Of a DNA stretch of 64,000 nt, positions 237 through 61,795 are shown piece after piece (position 1 is the first letter of the stretch; the number at the start of each line of letters is the position of its first letter). The DNA lies in contig CAWHTE010000004.1 of assembly GCA_963832165.1 (NCBI GenBank), forward strand, positions 576,001-640,000, in the 5' to 3' direction. The translations under genes and the position numbers were made by a program. The notes beneath the pieces were generated by a model. The model was not told the origin of the DNA. It saw nothing but the letters and a program-made list of their open reading frames with translations, and did no database searches. Origin of the DNA: an uncultured delta proteobacterium (lineage in GTDB: Bacteria; Myxococcota_A; UBA9160; SMWR01).

Positions 237-337
237 GCAAGGAGGCCGACGAAGTCGGCCGACGCGCAGCGAGGCGGAGCCGAGCGAAGGCCGGGAGCCC
301 GAGCGCGAGCGATCAGCGAGCGCGAAGGCCCGGCAAG
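237..337 (+). repeat. Dispersed structured repeat, long form (copy A1)
   Basis: 101 nt; 4 mismatches to 56749-56849; near-identical to reverse complement of 61693-61791; hairpin GGCCGAC-GAA-GTCGGCC. Confidence 0.95.
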
Positions 338-689: not shown

Positions 690-1796
690 ATGCCGCGCCG
701 AAAGCCCAGCTCCCGACGTCCCGCGCCGCGTCGCGCCGCGAGCTTTGCGCCGCGCGGACCGCGGCGGATCGTGATGCTCGCGTTCCCGGACGCCCAGATC
801 CTCGACGTGACGGGGCCGCTCGAGGTGTTCGCGATCGCATCGCGGCTGCTCTCCGAGAGGCAGGTTTCGCGCAGCGAGCCAAAGGCGAGCGAAGTCCACA
901 AGGCGAGCCGCGATGCGGGCTACCGCTTGGAGCTCGTCGCCGCGAACGCGGGACCCGTGCGCATGAGCTCGGGTCTCGAGCTCGTGGCGCAGCGCGCGCT
1001 GCGCGAGGTGCGTGGCCCCATCGACACGCTGTTCGTCGCGGGCGGCGAGGGCACTCGGCGCGCCGCGGGAGACGCCCAGACGATCGACTGGATCCGGCGC
1101 ATGGACGCGCGAGCGCGGCGCATGGCCGGGGTGTGCACGGGCGCGTTCCTGCTCGCGCGCGCAGGGCTGCTCGACGGTCGCCGCGCCACCACCCACTGGC
1201 GCAGCTGCGGCGAGCTCGCGCGGCGGTTCCCGCGCATCCGGGTCGAGCCCGACCGCATCTACGTGCGCGACGGGCGCATCGCGACGTCTGCGGGCGTCAC
1301 CGCGGGCATGGACCTCGCGCTGGCGCTGCTCGAGGATGATCTGGGCGGCGAGCTCGCGCGCGACGTCGCTCGGCACCTGGTGCTCTTCCTGCGGCGGCCC
1401 GGCGGGCAGTCGCAGTTCAGCGTCCAGCTCGCGAGCCCGCTCGCGGGCCGACCCTCGCTGCGCGAGCTGCAGAGCTGGATCCACGAGCACCCCGATGCCG
1501 ATCTCGGCGTCGACGTGCTCGCGCGGCGCATGGGTATGAGCCCGCGCAATTTTGCGCGCATCTTCACGCGCGAGCTCGCGCTGACCCCCGCGCGCTATGT
1601 CGAGCGCGCGCGCGTGGAAGCCGCGCGCCAATGGCTCGAGGATTCGCGCGCGGGACTCGACGAGGTGGCGTCCGCGTGCGGATTCGGCAGCGCAGAGACG
1701 CTCCGGCGCGCCTTCCAGCGCCTGCTGCGTGTCTCGCCCTCCGCCTATCGCGACGCATTCGCGCAACAGAGATCTCGGAAGGAGATACGAGCATGA
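690..1796 (+). CDS. GlxA-family transcriptional regulator (DJ-1/PfpI-like domain plus AraC HTH)
   Basis: LDVTGPLEVF, VCTGAFLLA, ATTHW, TSAGVTAGMD, RRPGGQSQFS, C-terminal CGFGSAETLRRAF. Confidence 0.92.
   Translation: MPRRKPSSRRPAPRRAASFAPRGPRRIVMLAFPDAQILDVTGPLEVFAIASRLLSERQVSRSEPKASEVHKASRDAGYRLELVAANAGPVRMSSGLELVAQRALREVRGPIDTLFVAGGEGTRRAAGDAQTIDWIRRMDARARRMAGVCTGAFLLARAGLLDGRRATTHWRSCGELARRFPRIRVEPDRIYVRDGRIATSAGVTAGMDLALALLEDDLGGELARDVARHLVLFLRRPGGQSQFSVQLASPLAGRPSLRELQSWIHEHPDADLGVDVLARRMGMSPRNFARIFTRELALTPARYVERARVEAARQWLEDSRAGLDEVASACGFGSAETLRRAFQRLLRVSPSAYRDAFAQQRSRKEIRA
864..894 (+). repeat. Dispersed repeat, short form (copy B1), inside the GlxA-family CDS
   Basis: GTTTCGCGCAGCGAGCCAAAGGCGAGCGAAG, identical to 54320-54350. 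Confidence 0.9.
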
Positions 1797-9961: not shown

Positions 9962-11455
9962 ATGGCACTCGAGCTCAAGCAACAGGTTCGCCTCAGCCAG
10001 CAGCTGGTGATGACCCCCCAGCTGCAGCAGGCGATCAAGCTGCTGCAGCTCTCGCGCATGGAGCTCGTCGATCTGGTGCAGCAGGAGCTCCAGGAGAATC
10101 CGGTGCTCGAGGAGGGCATCGAGACCGACGAGGAGCGCGCCGCCGCGGAGAGCGTGGGACTCGCGGAGAATCCCGAGATCGCCGACGCGACCGAGGCGAC
10201 CGCGGAGCTCGCGGCTGCGGACCTCGGCAGCCCCGACCCCGGCACCGCCAGCGAGGCGACCGACGCCGAGAAGTTCGCCGACGTCGACTGGCAGGACTAT
10301 CTCGACGCCAATCCGCACACGGGCATGCGCGAGGTGATGGGCGCGGACGAGCGGCCCTCGATCGACGCCACCTACACGCGCCGCGAGACGCTCTCCGAGC
10401 ACCTGCTCTGGCAGCTCCAGCTCGCGTCGCTGCCGGTCGAGGAAGAGATCGCCGCGCGCTTCATCATCGGCAACCTCGACGACCGCGGCTATCTGACCTC
10501 GCCGCTCGAAGAGATCTCGCGCCAGAGCGGCGTGCGCGAGAGCGTGGTGGTCACCGCGCTCGCCGTCGTGCAGGAGTTCGACCCGAACGGCGTCGCGGCG
10601 CGCGACCTGCGCGAGTGTCTGCGGGTCCAGGCGCGCCTGCTCGGCATCGAAGATCCGCTCGTGCTGCGGATCCTCGACGAACAGCTCGACGCGCTGGTCA
10701 AGCGCGACTTCCGCGGCGTCGCGCGCGTACTCGGCGTGTCGATCGAGGAGGTCGCCGCGGCATCGCAGGTGATCGGCCGCCTCGAGCCTCGGCCGGGTCG
10801 CGCGTTCGGCGGCGAAGATCCGGTCTACATCGTTCCGGACATCTACGTGTACCGGATTGGCGACGACTTCCACGTCGTGCTCAACGACGACGGACTGCCG
10901 CGCCTGCGCATCAGCGCGCTCTACCGCGAGGTGCTCGCGAAGGGCAATTCCGCGCCGAAGGACACCAAGGAATACGTGGGCGACAAGGTCCGCTCGGCGA
11001 TGTGGCTGATCAAGTCGATCCACCAGCGCCAGCGCACGATCTACAAGGTGATGCAGAGCATCATCAAGCACCAGCGCGAGTTCTTCGAACGCGGCATCAA
11101 CTATCTCAAACCGCTCAATCTGCGCGACGTGGCAGACGATATCGAGATGCACGAGTCGACGGTGAGCCGCGTGACCACCAACAAGTACGCCCATACACCA
11201 CAGGGCATCTTCGAGCTGAAGTACTTCTTCAACTCGAGCATCAGCCGCGTGCAGGGCGATGCGGTGGCGAGCGAGAGCGTGAAGGAGCGGATCCGCCGGC
11301 TGATCGTGAACGAGGATCCGCGGCGCCCGCTCTCCGATCAGCGGATCGCCGAAATGCTTCGCGTGGCGAACATCGACATCGCGCGGCGCACCGTGACCAA
11401 ATATCGCGAGTCGATGAACCTCTTGTCCTCGACCAAACGACGACAGGTAGGGTGA
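9962..11455 (+). CDS. rpoN: RNA polymerase sigma-54 factor
   Basis: MTPQLQQAIKLLQL, MHESTVSR, RpoN box ARRTVTKYRE. Confidence 0.98.
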   Translation: MALELKQQVRLSQQLVMTPQLQQAIKLLQLSRMELVDLVQQELQENPVLEEGIETDEERAAAESVGLAENPEIADATEATAELAAADLGSPDPGTASEATDAEKFADVDWQDYLDANPHTGMREVMGADERPSIDATYTRRETLSEHLLWQLQLASLPVEEEIAARFIIGNLDDRGYLTSPLEEISRQSGVRESVVVTALAVVQEFDPNGVAARDLRECLRVQARLLGIEDPLVLRILDEQLDALVKRDFRGVARVLGVSIEEVAAASQVIGRLEPRPGRAFGGEDPVYIVPDIYVYRIGDDFHVVLNDDGLPRLRISALYREVLAKGNSAPKDTKEYVGDKVRSAMWLIKSIHQRQRTIYKVMQSIIKHQREFFERGINYLKPLNLRDVADDIEMHESTVSRVTTNKYAHTPQGIFELKYFFNSSISRVQGDAVASESVKERIRRLIVNEDPRRPLSDQRIAEMLRVANIDIARRTVTKYRESMNLLSSTKRRQVG

Positions 11456-11495
11456 TGCGGGCTAGAGTGCCGGCTCGCAGGCCAGGGGCACGCCG

Positions 11496-11957
11496 ATGAA
11501 GATCATGGAGATCCTCGTCAAAGAGTCCGTGATCCTCGATCTCGGCGTGCGGACCAAGCGCGAAGTGCTTGCGGAGATGGCCGCGAGCCTCGCGAAGGTC
11601 GAGCCGCAGATCGCAGCCGACCGGCTGCTCGACGTGCTCATGGAGCGCGAGGCACTCCAGAGCACCGGGATCGGCGAGGGCGTGGCGATCCCCCACGGGA
11701 AGCTCCCGGGACTCGAGCGGCTGGTCGCGAGCTTCGCGCGCAGCCGCGAGGGCATCGACTTCGAGTCGATCGACGGTCAGCTCACCCACCACTTCTTCCT
11801 GCTGGTAGTGCCCGAGCATTCGGGCGGGCAGTACCTGAAGGCGCTCGCTCGGATCTCCCGGTTCTTCCGGGATCCCGCCTTCCGCCAGAGCCTCGCGCAG
11901 GGCGAGGAACTGGAAGACGTGATCCGCGCAATCGAAGAAGAAGACGCCAAGCTCTGA
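11496..11957 (+). CDS. ptsN: PTS EIIA-Ntr
   Basis: ERE...STGIGEGVAIPHG; follows rpoN. Confidence 0.9.
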   Translation: MKIMEILVKESVILDLGVRTKREVLAEMAASLAKVEPQIAADRLLDVLMEREALQSTGIGEGVAIPHGKLPGLERLVASFARSREGIDFESIDGQLTHHFFLLVVPEHSGGQYLKALARISRFFRDPAFRQSLAQGEELEDVIRAIEEEDAKL

Positions 11958-11979
11958 TCCGCGTTCGCTTGGAGATGCC

Positions 11980-12489
11980 GTGAGATACCACGGTGTATTG
12001 GTCGACGTCGGAGGTGTGGGCGTGCTGCTCGCGGGGCCGAGCGGTGCCGGCAAGAGCGAGTGCGCGCTCGAGCTGATCGCGCGCGGGAACCGGCTGGTCG
12101 CGGACGATGCGGTCGAGCTCACGCGCGAGGGCGACCGCGTGATCGGGCGCGCCTCGGAGGTGATCGGACCGCACCTCGAAATCCGCGGGCTCGGCATCCT
12201 CAGCGTCGTGGACCTCTACGGCCCGGACGCGTGGACGGAGTCGGCTGCGGTCGAGCTCGTGTGCCGACTCGACCCGGGCCGCGCGGACTTCGACCGCGTC
12301 GGGCTCGTGCGCGAGACCGAGGACCTGCTGGGCGTCGCGGTGCCGCGCGTCGTGCTGCCGGCGCCGCCGGGCACCAGCCTCGCGACGATCGTCGACGCGG
12401 CCGTGCGCGACCTGCGCCTGCGGATGGCCGGCACCAACTCCGCGGAGCGCTTCGACGCGCGCTGGCAGCGGTCGAGGCGATCGTCGTGA
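11980..12489 (+). CDS. hprK: HPr kinase/phosphorylase, short form (catalytic domain only)
   Basis: HGVLVDV, GPSGAGKSECALELI, LVADD, LEIRGLGI. Confidence 0.88.
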   Translation: MRYHGVLVDVGGVGVLLAGPSGAGKSECALELIARGNRLVADDAVELTREGDRVIGRASEVIGPHLEIRGLGILSVVDLYGPDAWTESAAVELVCRLDPGRADFDRVGLVRETEDLLGVAVPRVVLPAPPGTSLATIVDAAVRDLRLRMAGTNSAERFDARWQRSRRSS

Positions 12490-13349
12490 GCCGCTCACGC
12501 GTCGTGTTCGTGTCGGGGTTGTCGGGCAGCGGCAAGAGCACTGCGATGGCCGCGCTCGAGGATCTCGGCTTCTACTGCGCGGACAACCTGCCGGCCCCGC
12601 TGGTCGATCAGTTTCTCGATCTCTGCGCCAAGGCCACGCCGCCGATCGAGAAAATCGCGCTCGCGCTCGACGCGCGCGAGGCCCAGTTCCTGACCGCGAT
12701 GCCCGCGGCGATCGCGCGCGTGCGCGAGGTGGGGCACTCGGTGGAGCTGCTCTTCCTCGACAGCTCGGACGAGTCGCTCGTGCGCCGTTACCGGGAGACG
12801 CGGCGCGTCCACCCGCTCTCCCCGGACGGCTCGGTCGAGCGCGGCATTGCGGCCGAGCGCACGCTCCTGCGCGACGTCGCGCGCCTCGCCGACCGCTCGA
12901 TCGATACCAGTGCGCTCAACGTGCACCAGCTCAAGGCCGCGATCGTCCAGGTGGTGTCGGGCCAGACCCGCCCCACGGTCGTGAACGTGGTCTCGTTCGG
13001 GTTCCGCTATGGCACGCCCGAGGCGCTCGAGCTCTTGTTCGACGTGCGCTTTCTGCCCAATCCCTTCTTCGAGACCGACCTGCGCGAGCGCACCGGACTC
13101 GACGCCCCCGTGGCCGAATACGTGCTCAAGTCGACGCGCGGGTCGGCGTTCTTCGAGCGTCTGCGCGATTGGCTGCGCTTCCTGCTACCCCTCTACGACA
13201 GCGAGGGGAAGGCCTACGTCACGATCGGGGTAGGGTGCACTGGGGGAAGGCACCGGTCGGTGGTGGTGGCCGAAGCCATCGCGGTCGCGCTGCGCGCGGA
13301 CGGCCGCGAGGTGAACGTCGAGCACCGCGACGTGGAGAAGAGCACATGA
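12486..13349 (+). CDS. rapZ: RNase adapter RapZ/YvcJ P-loop protein
   Basis: SGLSGSGKS, DNLP, SFGFRYG, DVRFLPNP, GCTGGRHRSV. Confidence 0.95.
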   Translation: MSRSRVVFVSGLSGSGKSTAMAALEDLGFYCADNLPAPLVDQFLDLCAKATPPIEKIALALDAREAQFLTAMPAAIARVREVGHSVELLFLDSSDESLVRRYRETRRVHPLSPDGSVERGIAAERTLLRDVARLADRSIDTSALNVHQLKAAIVQVVSGQTRPTVVNVVSFGFRYGTPEALELLFDVRFLPNPFFETDLRERTGLDAPVAEYVLKSTRGSAFFERLRDWLRFLLPLYDSEGKAYVTIGVGCTGGRHRSVVVAEAIAVALRADGREVNVEHRDVEKST

Positions 13350-13756
13350 AGCCGGGCATCGTGATCGTGACGCACTACCGGCTCGGCGAAGAGTTCCTGC
13401 AGGCGCTGCGCCTGATCGTGCCGGATGCGCCGGAGTTCCACTCGGTGTCGGTGGAGCCCACCCAGACGGTCGAGGAGATGCGCAGCAAGATCCAGGACGC
13501 GCTCAAGGCGGCCGACCGCGGGAACGGAATCCTCGTGCTCACCGACATGTTCGGCGGCACGCCCTCGAACATCGCGCTCTCGTTCCTCGACGAGCACCGC
13601 GTGGAAGTCGTCACGGGCCTCAACCTTCCGATGCTGATCAAGCTCGCGACGATGAGCGAGGACAAACCGCTCGACGAGCTCGCCGCGTTCATCAAGAGCT
13701 ATGGGCAGCGCAACATCTCGGTGGCGAGCGAGCTCCTCCCGGACGAGGGCCAATGA
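13346..13756 (+). CDS. PTS mannose/fructose-type EIIA component
   Basis: [30 protein letters not shown]. Confidence 0.92.
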
Positions 13757-14076
13757 CCGGCGATTCGCGCTGCGAGCGGGTGTTCACGGTGCACTCCGAC
13801 CTCGGGCTGCACGCGCGCCCGGCCGGCGTGTTCGTGATGGTCGCCAAGCGCTTCGAGGCCCAGATCGAGGTGGCGCGCGCGGAGGGCGGCGAGGACTGGG
13901 TGGACGGCCGCAGCATCCTGTCGCTGCTCTCGCTCGCGGCCGGTCGCGGCACGCGCCTGCGCGTGCGCGCCCAGGGCACCGATGCAGCCGACGCCGTGGA
14001 GGCGCTGGGCCGGCTGCTCGAGGGTCGCGACGCGACTCCCGGATCGGGCGCAGCCGAGCGCAGCCAAACAGGCTAG
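13753..14076 (+). CDS. ptsH: Phosphocarrier HPr
   Basis: GLHARPA (His15 site) and DGRSILSL (Ser46 site). Confidence 0.92.
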
Positions 14077-14077
14077 A

Positions 14078-14127
14078 CGCAAGCGCCGCGAAGCGGCGCG
14101 CGCAGCGAGCCGAAGGCGAGCGAAGTC
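14078..14127 (+). repeat. Dispersed repeat, medium form (copy B3)
   Basis: CGCAA-GCGCCGC-GAA-GCGGCGC-GCGCAGCGAGCCGAAGGCGAGCGAAGTC; matches reverse complement of 52033-52080. Confidence 0.92.
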
Positions 14128-14155
14128 AAAGAGGGGGTCAGGGCATCCTCGACGG

Positions 14156-14184
14156 TCGAGAGTCTTGGACCGGCCTGCTAGGAT
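14156..14184 (+). promoter_or_regulatory. Candidate sigma70 promoter of metK
   Basis: TCGAGA-17 nt-TAGGAT with extended TG. Confidence 0.4.
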
Positions 14185-14264
14185 GCCCGCCTCCGGGGCC
14201 TCGCCGGGTCGCCCGCGATCCGCTCCGATGGCCCCAGCAGACCCGATCCGAGGAGAATCCGGTT

Positions 14265-15428
14265 ATGTCGCGCCAGCTGTTCACGTCCGAGTCGGTCTCG
14301 ATGGGCCATCCCGACAAGATGTGCGACCAGATCTCGGACGCCGTGCTCGACGCGATGCTCGAGCAGGATCCGACCTCGCGCGTCGCGTGCGAGACGCTGA
14401 CCACCACGGGCATGGTGCTGCTCGCGGGCGAGATCACCACCAAGGCCGACGTCGAGTTTCCCGCGCTCGTGCGCGATGTGGTGCGCTTCATCGGCTACAC
14501 GAGCTCGGAGATGGGGTTCGACGCCGACACCTGCGCCGTGCAGGTCGCGCTCGGCAAGCAGTCGCCCGACATCTCGCAGGGCGTGACCGAGGGCGAGGGC
14601 CTGCACAAGGAGCAGGGCGCGGGCGACCAGGGAATGATGTTCGGGTACGCCTGCGACGAGACGCCCGAGCTGATGCCTGCCCCGATCCGGCTCGCGCACC
14701 AGCTGATCGAGCGGCACCGCGAGCTCTTCGAGACCAACAAGCTCTCCTACCTGCGGCCCGACGCGAAGTCGCAGGTGACGGTCGAGTACGCGGATGACAA
14801 GCCCCGGCGGATCACCGCGGTCGTGCTGTCGACGCAGCACAGCCCCCAGGTGAGCTACGACACGCTGCGCAAGGACGTGATCGAGCAGATGATCCGGCCG
14901 GCGCTGCCGGCGAACTGGATCGACGCCAACACCGTGTTCCACGTCAACCCGACCGGCCGCTTCGTGGTGGGCGGCCCGATGGGCGACGCGGGCCTGACCG
15001 GGCGCAAGATCATCGTCGATACCTACGGCGGCATGGGTCGCCACGGCGGCGGCGCGTTCTCGGGCAAGGATCCCTCGAAGGTCGACCGCAGCGCGGCCTA
15101 CGCCGCGCGCTGGGTGGCGAAGAACCTCGTGAAGGCCGGCATCGCGCGGCGCGCCGAGGTGCAGCTCGCCTACGCGATCGGCGTGGCCGAGCCGATCTCG
15201 ATCCGCGTCGACACGTTCGGTACCTCGACGTTCGACTTCGATCGCCTCGAGCGGCTCGTGCGCGACCACTTCGACCTGACTCCGCGCGGGATCATCGAGG
15301 CGCTCGATCTGCGGCGCCCGATCTACCGCGCAACCGCCTATCACGGTCACTTCGGGCGCGAAGACCAGGGCTTCCCCTGGGAGGAGACGTCGCGCGCCGA
15401 GGCGCTGCGCCGCGCGGCGGCGCGCTGA
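14265..15428 (+). CDS. metK: S-adenosylmethionine synthetase
   Basis: [46 protein letters not shown]. Confidence 0.98.
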
Positions 15429-15432
15429 GCGG

Positions 15433-16497
15433 GTGACGCGGCGCGCGCGAGCGCGGTGGACCCCGTGGCTGCTCGGGGTCGGTGCGGGGGTCGCGTTCGC
15501 GGGCGCGGCGACCGCTCAGGAGCTGCGCGTGCTGCTCTACGAGACGCGCGGCACGACCCAGATCGCGGGCGCGCGCGTGGCGCCGGACGGCCCCGGCCTG
15601 CGCATCGACGGGCGCCGCGTGGGTCGGCGCTGGGTGGCGCCCGGGCCGGGACCGCATCGCGCGGGCGACCAGTGGGTGCGCGGCAGCGTCGCCGTGGAGC
15701 GCCGCGGGTCGGGCCTGCGCGTGATCAATCGCGTGCCGCTCGAGACCTACGTCGCGGGAACGCTCGGCACCGAGGTGTACAGCCGCTGGGACGACGACAC
15801 TCTGCGCGCGCAGGCCGTGGTGACGCGCACGTATGCGCTCTACCAGCGCGCGCGCCGCGGCGCGCAGGGCTTCGACCTCGAGGCCGACACGAGCAGCCAG
15901 GTCTACGGCGGTGTGCGCGCAGAGGATCCCGCGATCGCGAGCGCGGTCGCGGCCACGCGCTCCGAGGTGCTCACCTGGAACGGCCAGCCGATCCTCGCCG
16001 CGTTCCACTCCGCGGCGGGAGGCCGGACCGCGAGCGCCGAGGAGGTCTGGGGCGAGGCGCTTCCCTACTTGAGCAGCGTCGAGGTCGACGGCGAGCAGGA
16101 CTCGCCCGACACCTACTGGCGCGTGCGGTACTCGCGCACCGAGCTCGGGCGCGCGCTCGCGCCGCTGGGTCTCCGGCTCGGCGCGGTCCGCGAGGCGCGC
16201 GTGGCCGCGCGCACGCCGAGCGGCCGAGCGGCGCGCGTCGTGCTGACGGGATCGCTCGGAAGCGGGCACGTCACGGGGCGCGCGCTGCGCTCCGCGCTCG
16301 GCGACGGCGTGATCCGCAGCACGCTGTTCGAGATCCGCGATCTCGGCGACGACGTCGTATTCGTGGGCTCGGGCCACGGCCACGGGGTCGGCATGAGCCA
16401 GTGGGGAGCCCAGGCGATGGCCGAGCGCGGCGCCGACTACCGCGAGATCCTCGCGGCCTTCTATCCCGGAACCCGGTTGGAACGGAGGTCCAAGTGA
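15433..16497 (+). CDS. SpoIID/LytB domain protein (lytic transglycosylase-like)
   Basis: INRVPLETYVAG, LRAQAVVTRTYA, SQVYGG, GHGHGVGMSQWGA. Confidence 0.9.
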   Translation: MTRRARARWTPWLLGVGAGVAFAGAATAQELRVLLYETRGTTQIAGARVAPDGPGLRIDGRRVGRRWVAPGPGPHRAGDQWVRGSVAVERRGSGLRVINRVPLETYVAGTLGTEVYSRWDDDTLRAQAVVTRTYALYQRARRGAQGFDLEADTSSQVYGGVRAEDPAIASAVAATRSEVLTWNGQPILAAFHSAAGGRTASAEEVWGEALPYLSSVEVDGEQDSPDTYWRVRYSRTELGRALAPLGLRLGAVREARVAARTPSGRAARVVLTGSLGSGHVTGRALRSALGDGVIRSTLFEIRDLGDDVVFVGSGHGHGVGMSQWGAQAMAERGADYREILAAFYPGTRLERRSK

Positions 16498-16841
16498 ACG
16501 AGACCCTTGCCGGCTTCGTGCCGCTCCAGGCGGCGGCCGAGACGCCGTCGCCGCTCGGCATGCTCGTGCCCATGGGGCTGATCTTCCTGATCTTCTATTT
16601 CCTGTTGATCCGCCCGCAGCAGAAGCGCCAGCGCGATCTCGACGCGATGCTCAAGGCGATCGACAAGAACGACAGCGTCGTGACGGCGGGCGGGCTGCAC
16701 GGCAAGGTGGTCGGAATCGCCGACGACGTGCTCACGATCGAGATCGCAGCGCTGAAGGGCGAGCGCGTCCGGGTCAAGGTTTCCCGGGCGAAGATCGAGA
16801 GCGTGCAGAAGGCGAAGAAGGGCGAGGGCGAAGAGACATGA
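16494..16841 (+). CDS. yajC: Preprotein translocase subunit YajC
   Basis: IFYFLLIRPQQKRQ, VVTAGGLHGKV; precedes secD. Confidence 0.95.
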   Translation: MNETLAGFVPLQAAAETPSPLGMLVPMGLIFLIFYFLLIRPQQKRQRDLDAMLKAIDKNDSVVTAGGLHGKVVGIADDVLTIEIAALKGERVRVKVSRAKIESVQKAKKGEGEET

Positions 16842-18418
16842 CGAATCTGCGCTGGCGCATCGCTGCGGTGAGCGCGCTCGTGCTCTGGTTCAGCTTCCTC
16901 ACGGTGGCGAACTTCGTGCCGAAGGAGCAGCGCGTCGCGAGCCCGCTCCTCCCCGACGATGGGATGCGCCTCGGACTCGATCTGCAGGGCGGCATCCACT
17001 GGGTGCTCGGCGTGAAGCTCGAAGAAGCCGAGCACCAGGAGCTCTCGTTCCTGCGCGAGAGCCTGGAGGCCGCCGCACGCGACGACGACTTCACGCTGGA
17101 GTCGGTGGGGGTGGAGGGCAACCGGCTGGTGGTCACCGCGGGCCCGACCGCCGTCGAGAAGGTGCGCGAGTGGGTCAAGGGGACGGGAGCGCTCACGGAG
17201 CAGGCCACCGGCAACCGTCTCGAGTACACCCTCACCTCCGATGCCGTCGCGGCGGTCCGGAAGCGCGGCATGGACCAGGTGCTCGAGGTGCTGCGGCAGC
17301 GCATCAGCGATCCGATCAAGGGCATCGCGGACTCGGTGGTCACGCTCCAGGGCGCGGACCGCGTGCTGGTGCAGATCCCGGGCGGCCAGGTCGATCGCGC
17401 CAGCGCTCGCGAGCTCTTGCGCGTCACCGGCTTCCTCGAGTTCAAGATCGTGATGGATCAGGCGCAGAACGAGGAGCTCCTGCACGCGAAGTATCCCGAC
17501 GGTTTCCCGGCCGGCAGCGAAATCGGCACCGAGCGCGACAAGGAGACCGACCGGGTCCTGACGGCCTATCTGCTGCCCGCGGAACCGAACCTCACGGGCG
17601 ACTATCTCAAGGACGCGCGGGTGAGCTTCGACCGCCAGCAGCGCCCGATCGTGACGTTCCAGTTCAACAGCGAAGGCGGGCGGATCTTCGGCGAGCTCAC
17701 CGAATCGCACATCGGCGACCAGCTCGCGATCGTGCTCGACGACCGTGTCTACAGCGCGCCGAACATCCGATCGCGGATCGGCTCGAGCGGACAGATCGAG
17801 GGGCGCTTCACGACCCAGGAGGCCGCCGATCTCGCCGTAGTGCTGCGCTCCGGCTCGCTGCCGATTCCGGTCGCGATCGAGGAGGAGCGCACGATCGGCC
17901 CGGCCCTGGGCGCCGACTCGATCCGCCACGGCATCCAGGCCTCGGTGGCCAGCCTGCTCGCCGTGCTCGTCTTCGCGGTGGTCTACTACCGGATGTCGGG
18001 CGTGTACGCGACGATCGCGATCACGGTCGGCATGATCTCGATCATCGGCCTGATGGCGATGTCCAAGGCGACGCTCACGATGCCGGGGATCGCCGGGCTC
18101 GTGCTCACGGTCGGCATGGCGATCGACGGCAACGTGCTGATCTTCGAGCGCATCCGCGAGGAGCTGAAAGGCGGCAAGACGCCGCGCGCCGCGATCAAGG
18201 CGGGCTTCAGCCGCGCGCTGTATCCGATCGTAGACGGACACGTCACCGCGATGATCACGGCGCTGGTGCTCTACGAGTACGGCACCGGTCCGATCAAGGG
18301 GTTCGCGGTCACGCTGGCGCTCGGCCTGGTCGCGACCGTCTTCCAGGCGGTGATCGTCAACCGCCTTCTCTACGCCATCTACCCCGGCGACCGCCAGGTG
18401 GCCACATTGTCGATCTGA
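16838..18418 (+). CDS. secD: Protein translocase subunit SecD
   Basis: LGLDLQGG, LAIVLD, LRSGSLP, IGPALGAD, GMAIDGNVLIFERIREE. Confidence 0.97.
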   Translation: MTNLRWRIAAVSALVLWFSFLTVANFVPKEQRVASPLLPDDGMRLGLDLQGGIHWVLGVKLEEAEHQELSFLRESLEAAARDDDFTLESVGVEGNRLVVTAGPTAVEKVREWVKGTGALTEQATGNRLEYTLTSDAVAAVRKRGMDQVLEVLRQRISDPIKGIADSVVTLQGADRVLVQIPGGQVDRASARELLRVTGFLEFKIVMDQAQNEELLHAKYPDGFPAGSEIGTERDKETDRVLTAYLLPAEPNLTGDYLKDARVSFDRQQRPIVTFQFNSEGGRIFGELTESHIGDQLAIVLDDRVYSAPNIRSRIGSSGQIEGRFTTQEAADLAVVLRSGSLPIPVAIEEERTIGPALGADSIRHGIQASVASLLAVLVFAVVYYRMSGVYATIAITVGMISIIGLMAMSKATLTMPGIAGLVLTVGMAIDGNVLIFERIREELKGGKTPRAAIKAGFSRALYPIVDGHVTAMITALVLYEYGTGPIKGFAVTLALGLVATVFQAVIVNRLLYAIYPGDRQVATLSI

Positions 18419-18436
18419 CCAGGAAGGATCCCACCC

Positions 18437-19438
18437 GTGCCCTTCTTCGAGCTGATCAAACCCAACACGCGCATCGATTTCGTCGGGCAGACGAAGTACG
18501 CGATCGCGCTCTCGCTGCTGATCGTGGCGGCCGCCGTGGCAGCGATGTTCGTGCGCGAGCCCCCGGTGCGCCTGGGGATCGACTTCACCGGCGGCCTCGA
18601 GATGCAGGTCAGCTTCACGGAGGGCGCCGCCGTCGACGAGGCCCGGATCCGCGAGGTGCTCGCCGGCTTCGATCTCGCGGATGCCGAAGTGATTCGCGTC
18701 GGCGAAGGCTCCGAGGGCGACTACCTGGTGCGCATGCACACGCGCTCGCTGGGCGACCAGAACGAGATGGTCGATCAGCTGCGCGAGGCGTTCGTGCAGC
18801 AGCTCGGCGGGATCGACTTGAAGAAGGAGAAGATCGGCTTCGTGGGTCCGAAAGTCGGCGAGGACCTGCGTCGCGACGGGATCGTCTCGCTGACGGTCGC
18901 GAGCCTGCTGCTCTTGATCTACATCGGCATCCGCTTCACGCCGATCTTCGCACCGGGCGCGATCGTGGCGCAGGTCCACGACGTCATCGTCACGGCGGCC
19001 CTGCTCGTGATCTTGGGCTGCGAGTTCGATCTCACCGTGCTCGGCGCGCTGCTCGCGATCCTCGGCTACAGCATCAACGACAAGATCGTCGTCTACGACC
19101 GCATTCGCGAGAACCTGGCGCTCCACACCGCCTACGACTTCCCGAACATGGTCAACGACAGCCTGAACCAGACGCTGTCGCGGACCATCCTCACCGGTGG
19201 CACCGCGATCTTCTCGTCGTTCGCGCTGTATTTCTGGGGCGGGCCCGTGATCGCGACCTTCGGGCTCGCGATGGCGCTCGGGATCATCGTCGGCACGTAT
19301 TCGTCGCTCTACATCACGACGCCGATCCTGCTCTGGCTGCACAAGCGCTACGGCAAGCAGATCGCCGCGTCTGGATCGGGAAAGAAGGGCGGCAAGCGCG
19401 GCCCCGAGGGCGACCGGCGCGCGGGGCGCGTCGCCTAG
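18437..19438 (+). CDS. secF: Protein translocase subunit SecF
   Basis: LGIDFTGG, VGPKVGEDL, GYSINDKIVVYDRIREN, GTYSSLYI. Confidence 0.97.
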   Translation: MPFFELIKPNTRIDFVGQTKYAIALSLLIVAAAVAAMFVREPPVRLGIDFTGGLEMQVSFTEGAAVDEARIREVLAGFDLADAEVIRVGEGSEGDYLVRMHTRSLGDQNEMVDQLREAFVQQLGGIDLKKEKIGFVGPKVGEDLRRDGIVSLTVASLLLLIYIGIRFTPIFAPGAIVAQVHDVIVTAALLVILGCEFDLTVLGALLAILGYSINDKIVVYDRIRENLALHTAYDFPNMVNDSLNQTLSRTILTGGTAIFSSFALYFWGGPVIATFGLAMALGIIVGTYSSLYITTPILLWLHKRYGKQIAASGSGKKGGKRGPEGDRRAGRVA

Positions 19439-19466
19439 CGCAGTGCCTTTCATGCCATAATGCGGC

Positions 19467-20552
19467 ATGAGGCCTCGGCCGTTGGCCGGTCGGTGGGGTT
19501 GCGCGCTGGCGATCGGGCTCGCGGCGCTGCTCTCATCGGGCGCATCCGCCGCGCCCTGCGCGGACGATGACTTCGCGGGAACGCTGGGCTGTAGTTCGGG
19601 CGATGTGGTGCTGAGCGAGCTCTCGGTGACGTCGATCGTCGACGGCTGCGACTACATCGGGGACACCGCGAACCTCACGGTGCGCGCGCAGATCACGACC
19701 ATCGCCGCGACCCGTTACGACATCGGCATCTACCTCGCGGTCGATGGCGGCCATGCGCTCGTGGGCGCGTGTCACCACGACTACCTGCCGGCGCCCCCCT
19801 TCTTCAGCGCGGAGAGTGCCGGCGATGTGTGTGGCGACACCACTTCGATCGCGTCTCCCGTTCTGGCCGACCTCGGTTCTCCGATCACCATCCCCTGCAC
19901 CGATGCCGATCAGGACGGTGCGGCCGAGGTCCGCGGGCTGTTGAGCTGGGACAACAACGCTTCGAACGGCACCAGCGTGCCGCACTGCCTGGGCCTCGCC
20001 GATGCGATCCCGCACAGCGCGATCAGGTGCAGTCCGTCGGGTCTGCACAACATCGTGGGCCTGCCGGTCCCGACGCAATCGATCGAAGTACGCAAGGAAG
20101 TGGTCGACGGCGATCCCGCGGACCAGTTCGCGCTGCAGATCGACGGGGAGACGCACGCGATCACGACGCAGTTCGGGACGACGGGGCCCATTCCTGTGTC
20201 CGGTGCGGTCTCCCACACCGTCGCGGAGCTCGCCGGCGACGAAGAGACGGATCTCGCCGACTACGATTCCGCGATCGAGTGCCTCGACCTGGTCGGCACC
20301 TGCACGGACGATCTCATCACGCGGTGTGTCGCCGACGCGATGTGCACCACTGGCGTCTGCGATCTCGGGCCGTTCCTCGTGGCGAGCTGCAGCGACTGCA
20401 CGTCGCTGAACGTCGCCGTGCCAAACGCTCAGTCGACGATCCAGTGCACGATCACGAACTCACCCGAGCCGGGCCGGCTCGCGATGCTCGTCGCGGGCGC
20501 GGCTTCGGTGTGGCTGCTGGCGCGGCGGCGGAGACCCGTCCGCGGGAGCTAG
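19467..20552 (+). CDS. Cys-rich exported protein with PEP-CTERM-like sorting signal
   Basis: Signal peptide; many Cys, acidic; C-terminus SPEPGRLAMLVAGAASVWLLARRRR. Confidence 0.78.
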   Translation: MRPRPLAGRWGCALAIGLAALLSSGASAAPCADDDFAGTLGCSSGDVVLSELSVTSIVDGCDYIGDTANLTVRAQITTIAATRYDIGIYLAVDGGHALVGACHHDYLPAPPFFSAESAGDVCGDTTSIASPVLADLGSPITIPCTDADQDGAAEVRGLLSWDNNASNGTSVPHCLGLADAIPHSAIRCSPSGLHNIVGLPVPTQSIEVRKEVVDGDPADQFALQIDGETHAITTQFGTTGPIPVSGAVSHTVAELAGDEETDLADYDSAIECLDLVGTCTDDLITRCVADAMCTTGVCDLGPFLVASCSDCTSLNVAVPNAQSTIQCTITNSPEPGRLAMLVAGAASVWLLARRRRPVRGS

Positions 20553-21061
20553 GCGCCAGCGGTACCCGTGAGGCGGCGCGTCTCGGCCTGCGACGGCGCA
20601 TGCGCGGCTGCACCGGCCTTCGACGTCATCTGGATCGAGCCGTTCACGACCGCGCCCTCGGCGACGATCAGCCGCGGCGCGATAACGTCGCCCTCGACGA
20701 TGCCGGTGGCCTGGATCTCGACGCGCTCCGTGCCGCGCACGTTGCCGGACACGCGCCCGATCACCACGACGGACTTCGCCTGGACTTCGGCCTTGATCGA
20801 GCCGTTCGCGCCGATCGTGAGCTGGCTGTTGGGCAGTGTGACCTTGCCCTCCACCTTGCCCTCGATCACGAGGTCTTCTTCGCCCGTCAGATCGCCCGAG
20901 ATCGTGATCGACTTGCCGATATTCGCCATGTCTGCCTTTCCCTCACGTTCCCGGTACTGCACCGGGGTCGACGCGGGCTCGAAGCGCTGCGCCGCTGTGG
21001 ATGAACCGTTGAACGCGTCCACCGCGCTCTCCCGCTCGTCCTTCTTCCCGAACAAACTCAC
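20549..21061 (-). CDS. Bactofilin (polymer-forming cytoskeletal protein)
   Basis: IGKSITISGDLTGEEDLVIEGKVEG...GRVSGNV...VEGDVIAPRLIVAEGAVVNGSI. Confidence 0.93.
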   Translation of the reverse strand: MSLFGKKDERESAVDAFNGSSTAAQRFEPASTPVQYREREGKADMANIGKSITISGDLTGEEDLVIEGKVEGKVTLPNSQLTIGANGSIKAEVQAKSVVVIGRVSGNVRGTERVEIQATGIVEGDVIAPRLIVAEGAVVNGSIQMTSKAGAAAHAPSQAETRRLTGTAGA

Positions 21062-21094
21062 TTCACGTCGCTCCAGTGGGGGTGCGGGGGCAGC

Positions 21095-22900
21095 TTACCG
21101 CAGGGTTTCGACCTCAGCGATGTTGATATTGCGGTTGCGCAGGAGCGTGCCCTGGGCTCGGTCGAGCGCCGTCACGGAGGTGCGATAGGCCCGGAACGCG
21201 CCGATCTCGTCGCGCTCGCGCGCCACGAGCGCCTCCTCGCGCTGCAACACGTCGAACGGCGTCGATTCACCGTACTCGAGGCGGATCTGCTCGGCGCGCA
21301 GCTGCTCCGACGCCGCTTCGCGCGCGCTGCGCGCGGCCAGGATCCCCTCCTGGGACGCCTTGAGGTTGCGCGCGGCCTGCCGCACCTCGATCACGATCTG
21401 CTGCTCGAGCCGGTGCACGCTCGTGCGCGCGCGCAGCAGCTCGAGCTCGCTCCTCGACGCGTTCGCGCGCGCGGTGCGGTTCGGGAACGGGATGCTCACG
21501 CGCGCGCCCGCGATGTACTGCGGATAGTCCTCGTAGTCGTCGACGCTGTCGTCGAAATCGCCCGGGAAGCGGTTCGAAGGCGGGTTCAGCGCGCAGGCGA
21601 TCGGGTCCGCCGCGAAACGGCACGCGGTCGTCGCATTCTGCTCTCCGGCGAGACCGGTCTGGCCGAAGCGGAAGACGCCATCGAGCGCGGGCAGCCGTTG
21701 ATTCCGCGTGAACGCGAGCTGGACCTCCGAGCGCTGGAGCTCCTTGTCGGCGGCCGACAGCTCGGGGCGATGCTCGAACGCGCTGCTCACGGCCCCCTCC
21801 ACGTCGACCTCGTAGGGCGTGAAGTCGTCGGGGCGATCGGTGGGCCGGATCTCGAGCGTGGAGCTCGCGCGCAGGTTGGGGCCGAGCACGAGGTCGATCA
21901 GCACGTCCTGCTGATTGCGGTACTGATTCTCCGCGCGGATGAGCTCGACCTGGCGCTGGGAGACACCGGCCTCGGCCTCGGTGACCTCTACCTTGGAGAC
22001 CACACCCACCTCGAACTGCGTCTTGGTCTGCTCGCGCAGCACGTCCGCCGTCTCGAGGCTCTTCTTCGCGACGCGCAGCGCCTCCTCGTTGGCGATCAGG
22101 TTCCAGTAGGCGTCCTCGATCTTCTGCACCTCGTCCATCACCGCGCGGTGGAAGTCGTCTTCACTCGATCCGTGCAGCAGCCGGGCGCTGCGCACGCGGG
22201 TCCAGGGCTCGTTCCAGATCAGATTGCGGAGCACGGGCTGCGTGACGGCCACCGACCAGCCCGAGTCGTATCGGGGCGAGAGCGTCTCCGCGAGGGAGTT
22301 CGTGACGGAGCGGCCTCCGTCGAACTGGGCGGAGAACTGGGTGCTCGTGATCGGCAGGACTCCGCGCAGCCCGCCGAACCCTTCGGTGGAGCGATTCACA
22401 TTCGTCGTCACGCCCGTGATCGCGAAGCTGTTCGGGGTCCTCGTGTCGTTGTAGGTGAGCTCCGCGAACAGCTCGGGGTCGTACACGCCCCACGCGGCCG
22501 TGAGGTCGAGGTCGGCGATCATGGGCGAATAGCGCTCGATCTGGACGTCGAGGTTGTTCTCGAGCCCCATGCGAACGGCGTCGTGGAGTGTGAGCTCGAG
22601 CGTGCCGTGGAGCAGCGGCGCGGGCGCTTCCGCTTCGGGCTGCGCCGCTGCCTCGGGCGGCGGTGCGACGGCCTCGGGCTCGAGGGCCGGCTCGGCGGCC
22701 GGCTCTTCGACCGGCGGCGCCGCGGGCTCCTCGACGGGCTCTGCGGCGGGCTCTTCCGCCGGCTCCGCGATCGGCTGCTGAGCGCGATACAGGCCCTCGG
22801 GCGACTGCTCGGCCGGTGCGACGGGCTCTTCGCCGCGGGCGATCGGAGCGAGCGCGAGCGCGGCGAGCAGGGCGACGAGCCACGGCCTACGAACGGACAT
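21095..22900 (-). CDS. TolC-family outer membrane efflux protein with Pro/Glu/Ala-rich N-terminal linker
   Basis: Signal peptide; LTLHDAVRMGLENNLD, AYWNL, FEVGVVSKVEV, RPEL, GESTPFDVLQ. Confidence 0.88.
   Translation of the reverse strand: MSVRRPWLVALLAALALAPIARGEEPVAPAEQSPEGLYRAQQPIAEPAEEPAAEPVEEPAAPPVEEPAAEPALEPEAVAPPPEAAAQPEAEAPAPLLHGTLELTLHDAVRMGLENNLDVQIERYSPMIADLDLTAAWGVYDPELFAELTYNDTRTPNSFAITGVTTNVNRSTEGFGGLRGVLPITSTQFSAQFDGGRSVTNSLAETLSPRYDSGWSVAVTQPVLRNLIWNEPWTRVRSARLLHGSSEDDFHRAVMDEVQKIEDAYWNLIANEEALRVAKKSLETADVLREQTKTQFEVGVVSKVEVTEAEAGVSQRQVELIRAENQYRNQQDVLIDLVLGPNLRASSTLEIRPTDRPDDFTPYEVDVEGAVSSAFEHRPELSAADKELQRSEVQLAFTRNQRLPALDGVFRFGQTGLAGEQNATTACRFAADPIACALNPPSNRFPGDFDDSVDDYEDYPQYIAGARVSIPFPNRTARANASRSELELLRARTSVHRLEQQIVIEVRQAARNLKASQEGILAARSAREAASEQLRAEQIRLEYGESTPFDVLQREEALVARERDEIGAFRAYRTSVTALDRAQGTLLRNRNINIAEVETLR
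22676..22765 (-). repeat. Intragenic imperfect tandem repeat (EEPAAxPx units)
   Basis: AEPAEEPAAEPVEEPAAPPVEEPAAEPALEP, roughly 24-nt period. Confidence 0.7.
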
Positions 22901-23002
22901 GCGGAGGATCCTCCGTGGGCGCAACGGGTGCCCGACTCTACCAATCGATTCGCGTGCGGAGAAGCGCCTCAGGTCGATAGTTTGCTTGGCTATCTTGGCC
23001 CC

Positions 23003-23671
23003 ATGCGCGTAGCGGCGATCGTGGTGGCGGCGGGGCGCGGCGAGCGGCTCGGGCACGCGCTGCCCAAGGCGTTGGTGCCGCTGCGCGGCCGCACGCTGCT
23101 CGGGCACGCGGTGGCCGCGCTCGCGGCCAGCGATCGTGTGGACGCGGTGCTTCCGGTGCTGCCGCCCGGGATGGAAGCGCCGCGCGACGCGGCGCACGCG
23201 AAGCTGCTCGCGGCCGTCGCCGGCGGCGAGCGGCGCCAGGACTCGGTCGCCGCGGGGCTGGCCGCGTTGCCCGATGGCGTCGAATGGGTGGCTGTGCACG
23301 ACGCCGCGCGCGCGCTGGTGCGAACCGACGCCGTGACGCGTGTGATCGACGCGGCGATCCGCCACGGCGCCGCGCTGCTCGTGGTTCCCGCGCGCGACAC
23401 CGTCAAGCGCGTGCGCGCGGGAGTCGTCGTGGAGACCCCACCCCGCGAGGAGTGCTTCGCTGCGCAGACACCCCAGGTGTTCCGGGTCGGACTGCTGCGC
23501 GAGGCGCTCGAGAAGGCGCGCGCGGAGGGCCGCACCGCGACCGACTGTGCGCAGCTGGTCGAGGCGCTCGGCGTGCGCGTGCACGTGGTGCCGGGCGACT
23601 CCGACAACTGGAAGATCACCGATTCCGACGACCTCGCGGCCGCGGAGCGCGTGCTGGAGGCGCGGAGATGA
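23003..23671 (+). CDS. ispD: 2-C-methyl-D-erythritol 4-phosphate cytidylyltransferase
   Basis: AAGRGERLG...[29 protein letters not shown]. Confidence 0.95.

Positions 23672-24149: not shown

Positions 24150-24153
<4 letters not shown>
23668..24153 (+). CDS. ispF: 2-C-methyl-D-erythritol 2,4-cyclodiphosphate synthase
   Basis: [35 protein letters not shown]. Confidence 0.96.
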
Positions 24154-26141
<1,988 letters not shown>

Positions 26142-26145
26142 CGGT

Positions 26146-26317: not shown

Positions 26318-26347
26318 CAGCGCGTTTCGATCGGATAGGCTTTCGCC

Positions 26348-51973: not shown

Positions 51974-52032
51974 GGCATACGGTTTCTTTCGCGCGGCTCA
52001 ATTCGAGTCGCGCAGATCGGAAGCCACCGTTC

Positions 52033-52080
52033 GACTTCGCTCGCCTTCGGCTCGCTGCGCGCGCCCTTCGGGCGCTTGCG
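52033..52080 (-). repeat. Dispersed repeat, medium form (copy B4)
   Basis: Reverse complement CGCAA-GCGCCC-GAA-GGGCGC-GCGCAGCGAGCCGAAGGCGAGCGAAGTC. Confidence 0.92.
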
Positions 52081-54301: not shown

Positions 54302-55260
54302 CGCGCGCGATCGCCGCAAGTTTCGCGCAGCGAGCCAAAGGCGAGCGAAGACCATTGGGATGGGCTTGCGCGGCGCTCGCGCTGTACGCAGCGGGCTGCG
54401 CGAAGCCGGGCTGGGACGCCGAGCAGTGGGCCAGCACGCGACCCGAGCTCATGGGGCGCGCGGTCGGCCAGCTCGAGGACGTGACGCCCTACGTGCTCGC
54501 GTCCGAGGGCGAGCTCGTGTTCTTCGTGTGCCACTGGCCGCTGAACGAGCCGCTGCGCGTGTCACTGCCGCCCGACGCGAATCAACACGAGCGCGAGATC
54601 CTCGACAAGGCGCTGCGCGCGTGGGAGGCCGTGGTTCCGGGCCTGCGATTCGACGTCGTCGAGGGCACCGCGCAGATCCGGCTGCGCTTCCGCGAGTCCG
54701 GACCCGAGAGCGCGCGCACTGCGGCCGATTGCGAGGTGACTCCGCCGTTCACGGGCGATGCGCTGCGCGCACGGCTCGTCTCGGCACAGATCGATCTGCG
54801 GCGCGCCGAGCGCGATCCGTGGGGCAGGGTGGTCGAGCTCCAGGTGAGTCAGCTGCTCGGGAGCGTCACGCACGAGATCGGACACGCGCTCGGGCTCCAG
54901 GGGCACGCGCGCAGCGGCAAGACCGTGATGGTGCGCGAGACCTACTCGATCGCGAAGATCGGCGAGAAGCTGAACGACGAGAAGAAGCCCAAGCCGCTCC
55001 AGGAGCCCGCGATGCAGGCGCTCTACTCGCTGCCGTCGGGCACGGTGATCGAGCGGCGCCGGCTCGCCGCAGGCGCGACCGCTTCCGTCGACGCGATCGC
55101 GCAGCGCGCGCGAGCGCAGGGCGCCACGCGCGTGCAGGTGCGCGTGGGCGATCGAGCCGGCGCGGTGCGCTGGGGTCCCGGAGACCTCGTGTACTACTTG
55201 AGGGAGCCCGCGGAGATCCTCGCAGGGGATCTCGCTTTCGAGGATGCGCTGACGCCGTAG
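54298..55260 (+). CDS. Lipoprotein with metzincin-type zinc metalloprotease motif; start uncertain (CTG 54298 or TTG 54355)
   Basis: Lipobox AAGC; HEIGHALGLQGH followed by TVM (Met-turn-like). Confidence 0.75.
   Translation: MTRAIAASFAQRAKGERRPLGWACAALALYAAGCAKPGWDAEQWASTRPELMGRAVGQLEDVTPYVLASEGELVFFVCHWPLNEPLRVSLPPDANQHEREILDKALRAWEAVVPGLRFDVVEGTAQIRLRFRESGPESARTAADCEVTPPFTGDALRARLVSAQIDLRRAERDPWGRVVELQVSQLLGSVTHEIGHALGLQGHARSGKTVMVRETYSIAKIGEKLNDEKKPKPLQEPAMQALYSLPSGTVIERRRLAAGATASVDAIAQRARAQGATRVQVRVGDRAGAVRWGPGDLVYYLREPAEILAGDLAFEDALTP
54320..54350 (+). repeat. Dispersed repeat, short form (copy B2)
   Basis: Identical 31-mer to 864-894. Confidence 0.9.
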
Positions 55261-56748: not shown

Positions 56749-56849
56749 GCAAGGAGGCCGACAGAGTCGGCCGACGCGCAGCGAGGCGAAGCCGAGCGAA
56801 GGCCGGAAGCCCGAGCGCGAGCGATCAGCGAGCGCGAAGGCCCGGCAAG
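56749..56849 (+). repeat. Dispersed structured repeat, long form (copy A2)
   Basis: 97/101 identical to 237-337. Confidence 0.95.
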
Positions 56850-60886: not shown

Positions 60887-61795
60887 CTACTTGGGCCACT
60901 CCGGCCAGTCGCGCGACACGGAAAGTTTCCAGTCTGGCGCGCGCCGCTCGAGGTAGGCCACCACGCCCTCGACCGCGTCCGCGCGCGCCATGAGGTGGTG
61001 GTGCAGGGCGGTCTCCTTGCGCTCGATCGCGACCGGATCGAGCAGGGAGCTCTCCCAGAGCAGCCGCTTCGTGACCGCGACCGAGAGCGGGGCGGTGTTC
61101 GCCGCGATGTCCTTCGCGATCGCGAGCGCGGTCGGCAGCACCTCGGCCGCGGGCACGACGCGCGAGGCGAGGCCGAGCCGCTCCGCCTCGAGCGCGTCGA
61201 TCTTGCGGCCCGTGAGCAGGAGGTCGGCGGCGCGGCTGTGTCCGACGATCCGCGGCAGCGTGAAGTGCGCGTACGCGTCGGGCATCACGCCGCGGCGCAC
61301 CTGGACCACGCCGTACTTTCCCTCGCGTGCGAGGATACGCAGGTCGCACTGCAGCGCGATCGTGAAGCCGAGACCGATCGCGTGGCCGTTCACCGCGGCG
61401 ATCACGGGCTTGCGGATCGCGAACGCGGGCGGATCGAACGCGGCCGCCGAGAAATCGGCCGGCTCCTGCGCCGCGAACGTCGCGGCGCCCGGCGCGAGAT
61501 CGGCACCGGTGCAGAACGCATCGCCGGCACCCGTGATCACGACCGCGCGGATCGCGTCGTCGCCGTCGCAGCGGCGGTAGGCGGCGCCGAGCGCCAGGCC
61601 CATCGCACCGCTGAACGCGTTGCGCTGCTCGGGCCGGTTCAGCGTGACGAGCGCGACGCCCCCCTCGACCTCGAAGCGCAGGTCCTCCCCGTTTGCCGGG
61701 CCTTCGCGCTCGCTGCTCGCTCGCGCTCGGGCTCCGGCCTTCGCTCGGCTTCGCCTCGCTGCGCGTCGGCCGCCTTCGTCGGCCTCCTTGCTCAT
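60887..61795 (-). CDS. Enoyl-CoA hydratase/isomerase with repeat-derived N-terminal extension
   Basis: ATGA overlap with upstream gene; LNRPEQRNA, AFCTGADL, KPVIAAVNGHAIG. Confidence 0.92.
   Translation of the reverse strand: MSKEADEGGRRAARRSRAKAGARARASSEREGPANGEDLRFEVEGGVALVTLNRPEQRNAFSGAMGLALGAAYRRCDGDDAIRAVVITGAGDAFCTGADLAPGAATFAAQEPADFSAAAFDPPAFAIRKPVIAAVNGHAIGLGFTIALQCDLRILAREGKYGVVQVRRGVMPDAYAHFTLPRIVGHSRAADLLLTGRKIDALEAERLGLASRVVPAAEVLPTALAIAKDIAANTAPLSVAVTKRLLWESSLLDPVAIERKETALHHHLMARADAVEGVVAYLERRAPDWKLSVSRDWPEWPK
61693..61791 (-). repeat. Dispersed structured repeat, long form (copy A3), inside the enoyl-CoA hydratase CDS
   Basis: 99 nt, reverse-complement match to 237-336 with a 1-nt deletion. 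Confidence 0.95.

Follow-up and report, generated by a model that had tools for sequence, protein, structure and literature searches.

The window, by which we mean the whole stretch of 64,000 nucleotides, belongs to the genome of an uncultured delta proteobacterium (G000, here called the source genome). Its genes were called with a purpose-made hexamer caller. From 9962 to 28216 it carries an ordinary housekeeping series with rpoN, HPr, metK, uvrB and uvrC; at 22672-22776 a 12-nt tandem repeat occupies the N-terminal part of a TolC-family gene. Members of one repeat family, 42-100 nt in length, are found at seven places:

237..337, plus strand: long copy, between convergent genes
860..901, plus strand: short copy, inside a gene for a GlxA/FtrA-like AraC regulator (774-1796), on its sense strand
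14079..14130, plus strand: medium copy, directly after the stop of the HPr gene and upstream of metK, sense strand
52025..52079, minus strand: medium copy, between genes for a CDF transporter and a YciI-like protein, sense strand
54316..54362, plus strand: short copy, H1 (see below) with a TTT loop, after an acyl-CoA dehydrogenase gene, sense strand
56749..56849, plus strand: long copy, between two minus-strand genes and hence the antisense case
61693..61791, minus strand: long copy, where two minus-strand genes meet, at the 5' end of a gene for enoyl-CoA hydratase, sense strand

The copies are united by a core that matches exactly seven times, at 263, 868, 14099, 52035 (minus), 54324, 56775 and 61739 (minus), as the sequence-only reading had claimed. 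The eighth match has 3 mismatches; 0.34 matches with up to 3 mismatches would be expected, and 0 of 100 shuffles reached eight. The limits given by that reading are correct for the long copies, but the short ones have their first base at 860 and 54316 and extend about 10 nt beyond the core, and the medium ones begin at 14079 and, on the minus strand, at 52079. Six of the seven start with GCAAG, in line with its statement that nearly all do; the exception, formerly placed at 864, starts with GCAGG at 860. The scarcity of T is likewise real: the long copies contain 2, 2 and 0 T in 101, 101 and 99 nt of one strand, the purine-rich strand.

A genome-wide count of the core, which had been proposed as a check, revealed 132 exact and 168 near-exact matches in the source genome, which were merged into 188 loci. 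The family motifs gave 480 matches there and 1 in the reversed sequence. The exact core is present in 39 of the 61 genomes searched, with 0 to 195 copies each (reversed control: 0). When a GCAAG start is also required, 27 of the 251 genomes of the phylum have it; 24 of these belong to the class, and the remaining 3 come from one other family. The core is unchanged across families of the class and in one family outside it. Among the matches listed in a collection scan, the record titles were mostly those of Myxococcota and delta-proteobacterial metagenome bins.

The family is mobile, since the window sites and most further orthologous sites are empty in a relative. All seven window sites are empty in the closest one, G004. 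Beyond this, the site of 237..337 is empty in G001 and G005, that of 14079..14130 in G001, G003 and G005, those of 52025..52079 and 54316..54362 in G003 and G006, that of 56749..56849 in G001 and G003, and that of 61693..61791 in all five relatives aligned. Some of the same gaps hold copies of their own in opposite orientation, i.e., a related one in G006 for 237..337 and a tandem array in G005 for 56749..56849; G005 also has a different medium copy in the gap of 52025..52079. The wider comparison covered part of G004 and excluded sites at contig ends or without both flanks matched, so that 86 of 94 and 45 of 162 sites were usable. Of the G004 copies 69/86 had an empty site in the source genome, and 31/45 copies of the source genome had one in G004. 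The earlier description as a non-autonomous, dispersed and mobile element thus holds. No same-strain empty allele was seen in the contigs of four sequencing runs; among the runs listed none was an RNA run and none had more than 0.10 of the words. At a site of G000:C1 orthologous to L085 only the first nine element bases are left, which suggests loss by internal deletion.

Net gains at insertion sites cluster at 39, 42 and 45 nt. The copy at 860..901 is a net in-frame insertion of 42 nt or 14 codons, and 9/10 internal coding insertions with an empty orthologue preserve the frame. The element also enters itself: 22 of 161 copies lie inside an older copy, on the same strand, where 0.12 would be expected, and mostly replace the loop of its second hairpin (H2) and a few bases. 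At these nested junctions the start is fixed at GCAAG, often with 1 or 2 pyrimidines before it, and the 3' end is loose, 9-13 nt past the core. In short copies C precedes GCAAG in 47 of 70 cases (background 43%). Target duplications are absent from nested junctions and empty sites, where few target bases are lost, and no one-base tail was found at the insertion junctions and empty sites examined. A MITE of a DDE insertion sequence was rejected because the ends are unlike each other, few target bases are replaced and no target is duplicated. Head-to-tail arrays have periods of 42-101 nt, and some carry flanking DNA; in those at L009-L012 (G042), L014 (G037) and L259 (G179), with periods of 54-101 nt, some units contain flanking host DNA.

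The GCAAG start is part of the fold. It pairs with the first five bases of the core around a 2x2 AA/GC loop and so forms hairpin H1. This pairing was first suggested by an RNA fold and was confirmed by sequence variation: 139 of 172 distinct inner segments, from GCAAG to the core, close to a loop of at most 7 nt (shuffles: mean 15, maximum 22). One A after H1 follows H2, which is built GC-GA-stem-GNA-stem-GA-GC. In 168 genome matches the core stem is swapped on both sides, GCC..GGC in 114 and GGC..GCC in 43, and its loop is GNA in 156. Across 247 copies from two genomes, both arms of H1 as well as H2 hardly vary, except at the middle base of the last GNA; the segment after H2 (H3) varies between copies. 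In the long copy at 237..337, H1 occupies 237-267, with the AA/GC loop and an extra GA/GA step; after the linker A, H2 follows at 269-285 with GA/GA and a GGA loop, and then a long, GA-stepped H3. The claim that variation keeps the stems is borne out by the swap in the core, but the 5' hairpin has an AGA loop at 56749 and one stem mismatch in the copy at 61791. Similarly, the covariation looked for in a larger set is evident in H1 and the core stem but not in the tail of short copies, where a third hairpin was rejected (paired 55, expected 57.5).

With standard DNA energy parameters the folding is not significant (z −0.04 to −0.96); these parameters lack bonuses for GNA and sheared G.A. With RNA parameters the long copy reaches z −3.7 on the purine-rich strand and −1.6 on the other. 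Single-stranded DNA is stabilised by sheared G.A pairs and by three-base GNA caps that a C-G pair closes, and DNA is therefore the likelier working form. Our model predicts that, as single-stranded DNA, the purine-rich strand adopts two stacked hairpins, one with the AA/GC loop and one with a GA/GA loop and a GNA cap. The sequence-only reading had already proposed that one strand folds, with GNA loops of the DNA type and tandem G.A pairs; it had contained neither the pairing of GCAAG with the core nor in-frame insertion, self-nesting and the sense-strand bias.

This bias is strong. Within genes, 62 of 70 copies have the purine-rich strand as sense strand (8 are antisense), and in gaps between co-oriented genes 57 of 79 do (22 are antisense). 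Sense copies make up 52/61 in leading and 27/36 in lagging genes (p 0.28), the direction of replication being deduced from weak skews of unordered contigs. The copies thus track transcription, not replication, and targeting of the lagging strand as in IS608 was not seen in this comparison. Selection for hydrophilic open frames and intact ribosome sites may add to the sense bias.

Of course, a sense-strand element could work and move as RNA, i.e., as a structured module of mRNA that a reverse transcriptase copies and that then enters transcribed DNA. The bias itself speaks for it, as do the preference of RNA parameters for the sense strand of the long copy, the stability of tandem G.A pairs in RNA too, and a phage motif, described below, that likewise occupies the sense strand ahead of a start codon. 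The loops, however, are three-base GNA with a free N, a DNA-type cap and not GNRA, and the junctions show neither target duplication nor a one-base tail. Rfam has no match at gathering score in the window, and by E-value chance-level matches only; an RVT_1 match is missing from three of the five genomes searched (G000, G003 and G005). We consider the RNA route quite improbable.

A more serious contender is the enzyme class that the sequence-only reading had in mind, a cognate HUH transposase of the RAYT type. The source genome has 12 Y1 genes, one RAYT and 11 of another family. None of the 12 is flanked by the element. In the proposed check for clustering around such genes, the nearest core is 1.4 kb away, and one degenerate core match lies within 1.6 kb of one Y1 gene. 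The RAYT, at L002 (G000:C4:533959-537273), sits amid its own canonical GTAG REPs, of which one pattern finds 105 copies. They also use GA/GA steps and GNA loops, and 64/105 lie in convergent gaps. Close neighbours among them are inverted in 27 of 28 cases, whereas those of the repeat family are direct in 6 of 6. The RAYT-linked REP reaches high copy numbers in just 2 of 61 genomes (G000 and G002), whereas the core of the repeat is unchanged throughout the class, a pattern that would suit a slowly evolving host reader. The 11-copy Y1 family consists of divergent genes of 230-250 aa that are bordered by short inverted sequences and have an upstream motif in common. They lie at L001, L003-L008 and four further places, and the family has 2-21 copies in 15 of the 61 genomes.

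Could such an enzyme move the repeat in trans, being unlinked to it or lost from some genomes? REPs of E. coli require an AA/GC mismatch for TnpA activity, according to the available part of PMC8266576, and the repeat has this bulge; its sharp 5' end and the enrichment of C before GCAAG look as if they stemmed from a tyrosine-linked end. The number of Y1 genes tracks that of repeats (rho 0.55, 61 genomes, kin not independent), the 11-copy family is found in 11 of 22 repeat-rich but 4 of 39 repeat-poor genomes, and Y1 genes in general in 14/22 and 9/39, respectively, where kin are again not independent. Against this stands, apart from the missing linkage and the different arrangement of neighbours, that the 11-copy family was not found in the other 11 repeat-rich genomes, four of them 95-99% complete, and that no Y1 gene at all was found in 8 of the 22. 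The genomes with the repeat in which none was detected include G003, G004, G016, G037, G050 and G005, the last being 99% complete with 66 cores. Moreover, 768 neighbour proteins, clustered and read by eye, contained housekeeping families only and no recurring mobile-type gene, nor did one recur beside copies in low-copy genomes. The earlier assignment to a cognate RAYT is so far not supported for these reasons; movement by a Y1 enzyme in trans stays a live rival, possible if somewhat unlikely.

A stand-alone nuclease for single-stranded DNA, of the Ssn GIY-YIG or another type, might alternatively cut at the fold and leave it to repair to copy the element, as proposed for NTS-like repeats of Neisseria. 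SsnA cuts one strand near a hairpin repeat that is present in hundreds of copies (PMC11893778, in part), and nesting shows that our element is also a target. The likeness to these NTS/SRM repeats extends to the strand-specific hairpin and the copy number; the repeat differs in lacking sequence likeness, the CGTC tag and, in five genomes searched, a linked small GIY-YIG gene. GIY-YIG matches in G000, G004 and G014 are single and UvrC-sized, extras being confined to G017 and G028. DUF559 occurs in 1 of 5 genomes searched and the Y2 protein of IS91 in 3 of 5; the source genome yielded no reverse transcriptase, stand-alone GIY-YIG, IS91 or DUF559 gene. Such a nuclease appears highly improbable. 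An IS91-type rolling-circle element was dismissed, as G000 and G004 have no Y2 and none of five IS91 loci of relatives has a core.

Hairpins of the H1 type exist elsewhere. In the shortest H1 variant (22 of 405 stored copies, from relatives) the 13 central bases are identical to those of a phiX174 hairpin, located at 2355-2367 in the F-G gap. A structure-only scan of both strands of phiX174, ColE1, G4 and M13 found three AA/GC hairpins: one at 2354 of phiX174, an AT-rich one in its gene H, and one at 1555 (minus) of ColE1. The single one of ColE1 (L272:1536-1555, minus) lies 57 nt behind rop and is retained in two plasmids that are 79-81% alike there. G4 and M13, which to our knowledge do not use PriA, have none. 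The hairpins in the F-G gap and behind rop are, or adjoin, what we take to be PriA sites, namely the region of the phiX174 primosome site and ssiB; the minimal phiX site presumably ends just before the hairpin, and we assume that the gap also has a terminator. The likeness has to be read with caution. It concerns a very common mini-hairpin and was seen post hoc, and in alignments 7 and 11 of 200 shuffled queries reach equal scores. Against phiX174 or ColE1, the copies from the window do not outscore shuffles. For four of five element queries the best local alignment in ColE1 lies at 1311-1359, with scores not beyond those of shuffles; we take this to be the region of ssiA. A GA/GA hairpin with a GNA loop, as in the repeat, presumably lies about 140 nt past the ColE1 origin. 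The phiX174 pas and ssiA/ssiB of ColE1, with their positions as we assume them, may share with the repeat the build of the AA/GC hairpin and the arrangement as two adjacent hairpins. In contrast, primosome sites are single, fixed parts of replicons, whereas the repeat is mobile, dispersed over 188 chromosomal loci and without replication-strand bias. Hairpin primosome sites in phiX174 and in the vicinity of the ColE1/pBR322 origin, ssiB lying further downstream, are documented in the accessible parts of PMC8246471, PMC5778457 and PMC3167613, which do not give their limits.

Phages offer a broader sample. In IMG/VR a 15-mer of the phiX hairpin had more than 120 matches, its arm-swapped control 63; a second AA/GC hairpin lies directly upstream in 11 of 69 flank clusters versus 0 of 33 for the control. 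A targeted scan found 80 two-hairpin loci (L465-L544, e.g., L468:2476-2531) with 40 distinct motifs, of which 38 have a closed H1 of the repeat's medium type; a C-G/G-C pair is swapped 22:18. In small phages the motif precedes a start codon on the sense strand, and 32 of the 80 loci are 304-361 nt from a contig end. Frames for HNH or HNH-terminase proteins start just behind it (two cases confirmed by Pfam), in another case a Dam methylase. It has no Rfam match; a role in priming, packaging or late control is a candidate. The repeat itself is rare in IMG/VR: the exact 35-nt short form and the 20-nt variant have 0 matches, and the full pattern of H1, A and H2 has 5. Two of these represent one phage with a true, complete copy amid other GA hairpins in a non-coding stretch (L273:340-385, L281); the other three, in coding frames, are likely due to chance. 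Blastn of copies against plasmids and phages gave chance-level matches only.

Dispersed hairpin repeats without an enzyme that enter proteins are already known: BRE, RPE and intragenic REPs. The Betaproteobacterial repeat element (BRE) resembles our family as a dispersed repeat of 40-90 nt with head-to-tail arrays and some copies in genes; in the part of PMC3110155 at hand it is not oriented with replication and no enzyme is named. In Bordetella, judging by eye from the first listed sequences only, it has a GCAAG-hairpin-CGCAGCG module like H1 (PMC3110155). As far as that part of the source goes, BRE differs by a consensus of about 90 nt with T-run ends, the lack of a GA/GA hairpin with GNA loop, up to 29 copies and another phylum. 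Intragenic CGTC repeats, too, insert in frame and add short peptides to unrelated proteins, as stated in the accessible text of PMC3733652. The repeat is distinguished from them, and from RPE, by the absence of the CGTC tag, shorter length, self-nesting and a different fold. Rickettsia palindromic elements (RPE) presumably insert in frame with the same outcome. With GTAG REPs or BIMEs and their RAYT the repeat shares the short one-strand hairpin, the AA/GC bulge of the E. coli type and a location between genes and, for some copies, within them, to judge from portions of PMC8266576, PMC6006769 and PMC3733652. It lacks, however, the GT(A/G)G foot, as already noted for the GTAG tag, and has instead GCAAG, which is paired into H1; it forms no inverted dimers (BIME/REPIN), flanks no transposase, and has a strong sense bias and a class-wide invariant core, and a true REP/RAYT pair coexists with it in the same genome. 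Since BRE has an H1-like module and E. coli REPs the same mismatch, the AA/GC module is of a general kind and alone does not point to PriA. The literature searched describes neither the repeat family nor a link between such repeats and primosome sites; what appears new here is the putative relation, seen at the level of sequence, of its H1 to the hairpins of phiX174, ColE1 and phages.

How, then, does the repeat spread? Observed are its mobility, the sense-strand bias, the fixed 5' end at GCAAG, the loose 3' end, the small loss of target bases, arrays, and nesting into its own hairpin loop. We tentatively prefer, at somewhat less than an even chance, a gene-less mobile repeat that spreads through a conserved host system for priming on single-stranded DNA, with PriA-type primosome loading as the best candidate, and not through a transposase of its own. 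The non-template strand would be exposed during transcription, as in an R-loop, and would then fold. A conserved host factor, most likely one from the PriA route, may recognise the fold in the way a primosome assembly site is recognised. Priming 3' of the element would yield short copies that start at variable points but always end at the foot of H1; these could be captured at nicks or breaks by host repair, hairpin loops being preferred targets. Selection would then retain insertions that are in frame or spare ribosome sites. A priA gene was found in 57 of the 61 genomes and in 32 of 32 good ones. Several facts weigh against PriA: priA is universal, yet the exact core is missing from 22 of 61 genomes; an AA/GC mismatch is no specific feature, as the E. 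coli REPs mentioned above demonstrate (PMC8266576, in part); Y1 gene number correlates with repeat number; the sense bias may partly reflect selection; and priming alone does not cut a target. Nor do we know of any primosome site that is mobile. In its boldest form the proposal would be a selfish primosome assembly site: a fold of 42-100 nt without an enzyme of its own would, on the strand displaced when genes are transcribed, recruit the PriA restart primosome of the host and in this way copy itself to hundreds of sites, and the AA/GC hairpin would be a common core, so far unrecognised, that links the priming sites of phiX174 and ColE1 with BRE and REP repeats and with a phage signal that is widespread in front of HNH/terminase genes. 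In this breadth it is decidedly unlikely.

Two old questions are touched upon, how enzyme-less repeats such as BRE, RPE and the CGTC types spread, and what PriA reads in primosome assembly sites that look so dissimilar. The family provides hundreds of natural variants, in which the AA/GC and GA/GA loops are fixed while the stems change; together with the exact nested junctions and the matching phage motif it makes both questions testable with oligonucleotides of 45 nt. Across a whole class of uncultured soil bacteria, the repeat adds inserts of 13-16 residues to ordinary proteins. Even a genome with only four copies has one, at L233:1836-1879, inside a gene that presumably encodes the gamma subunit of ATP synthase.
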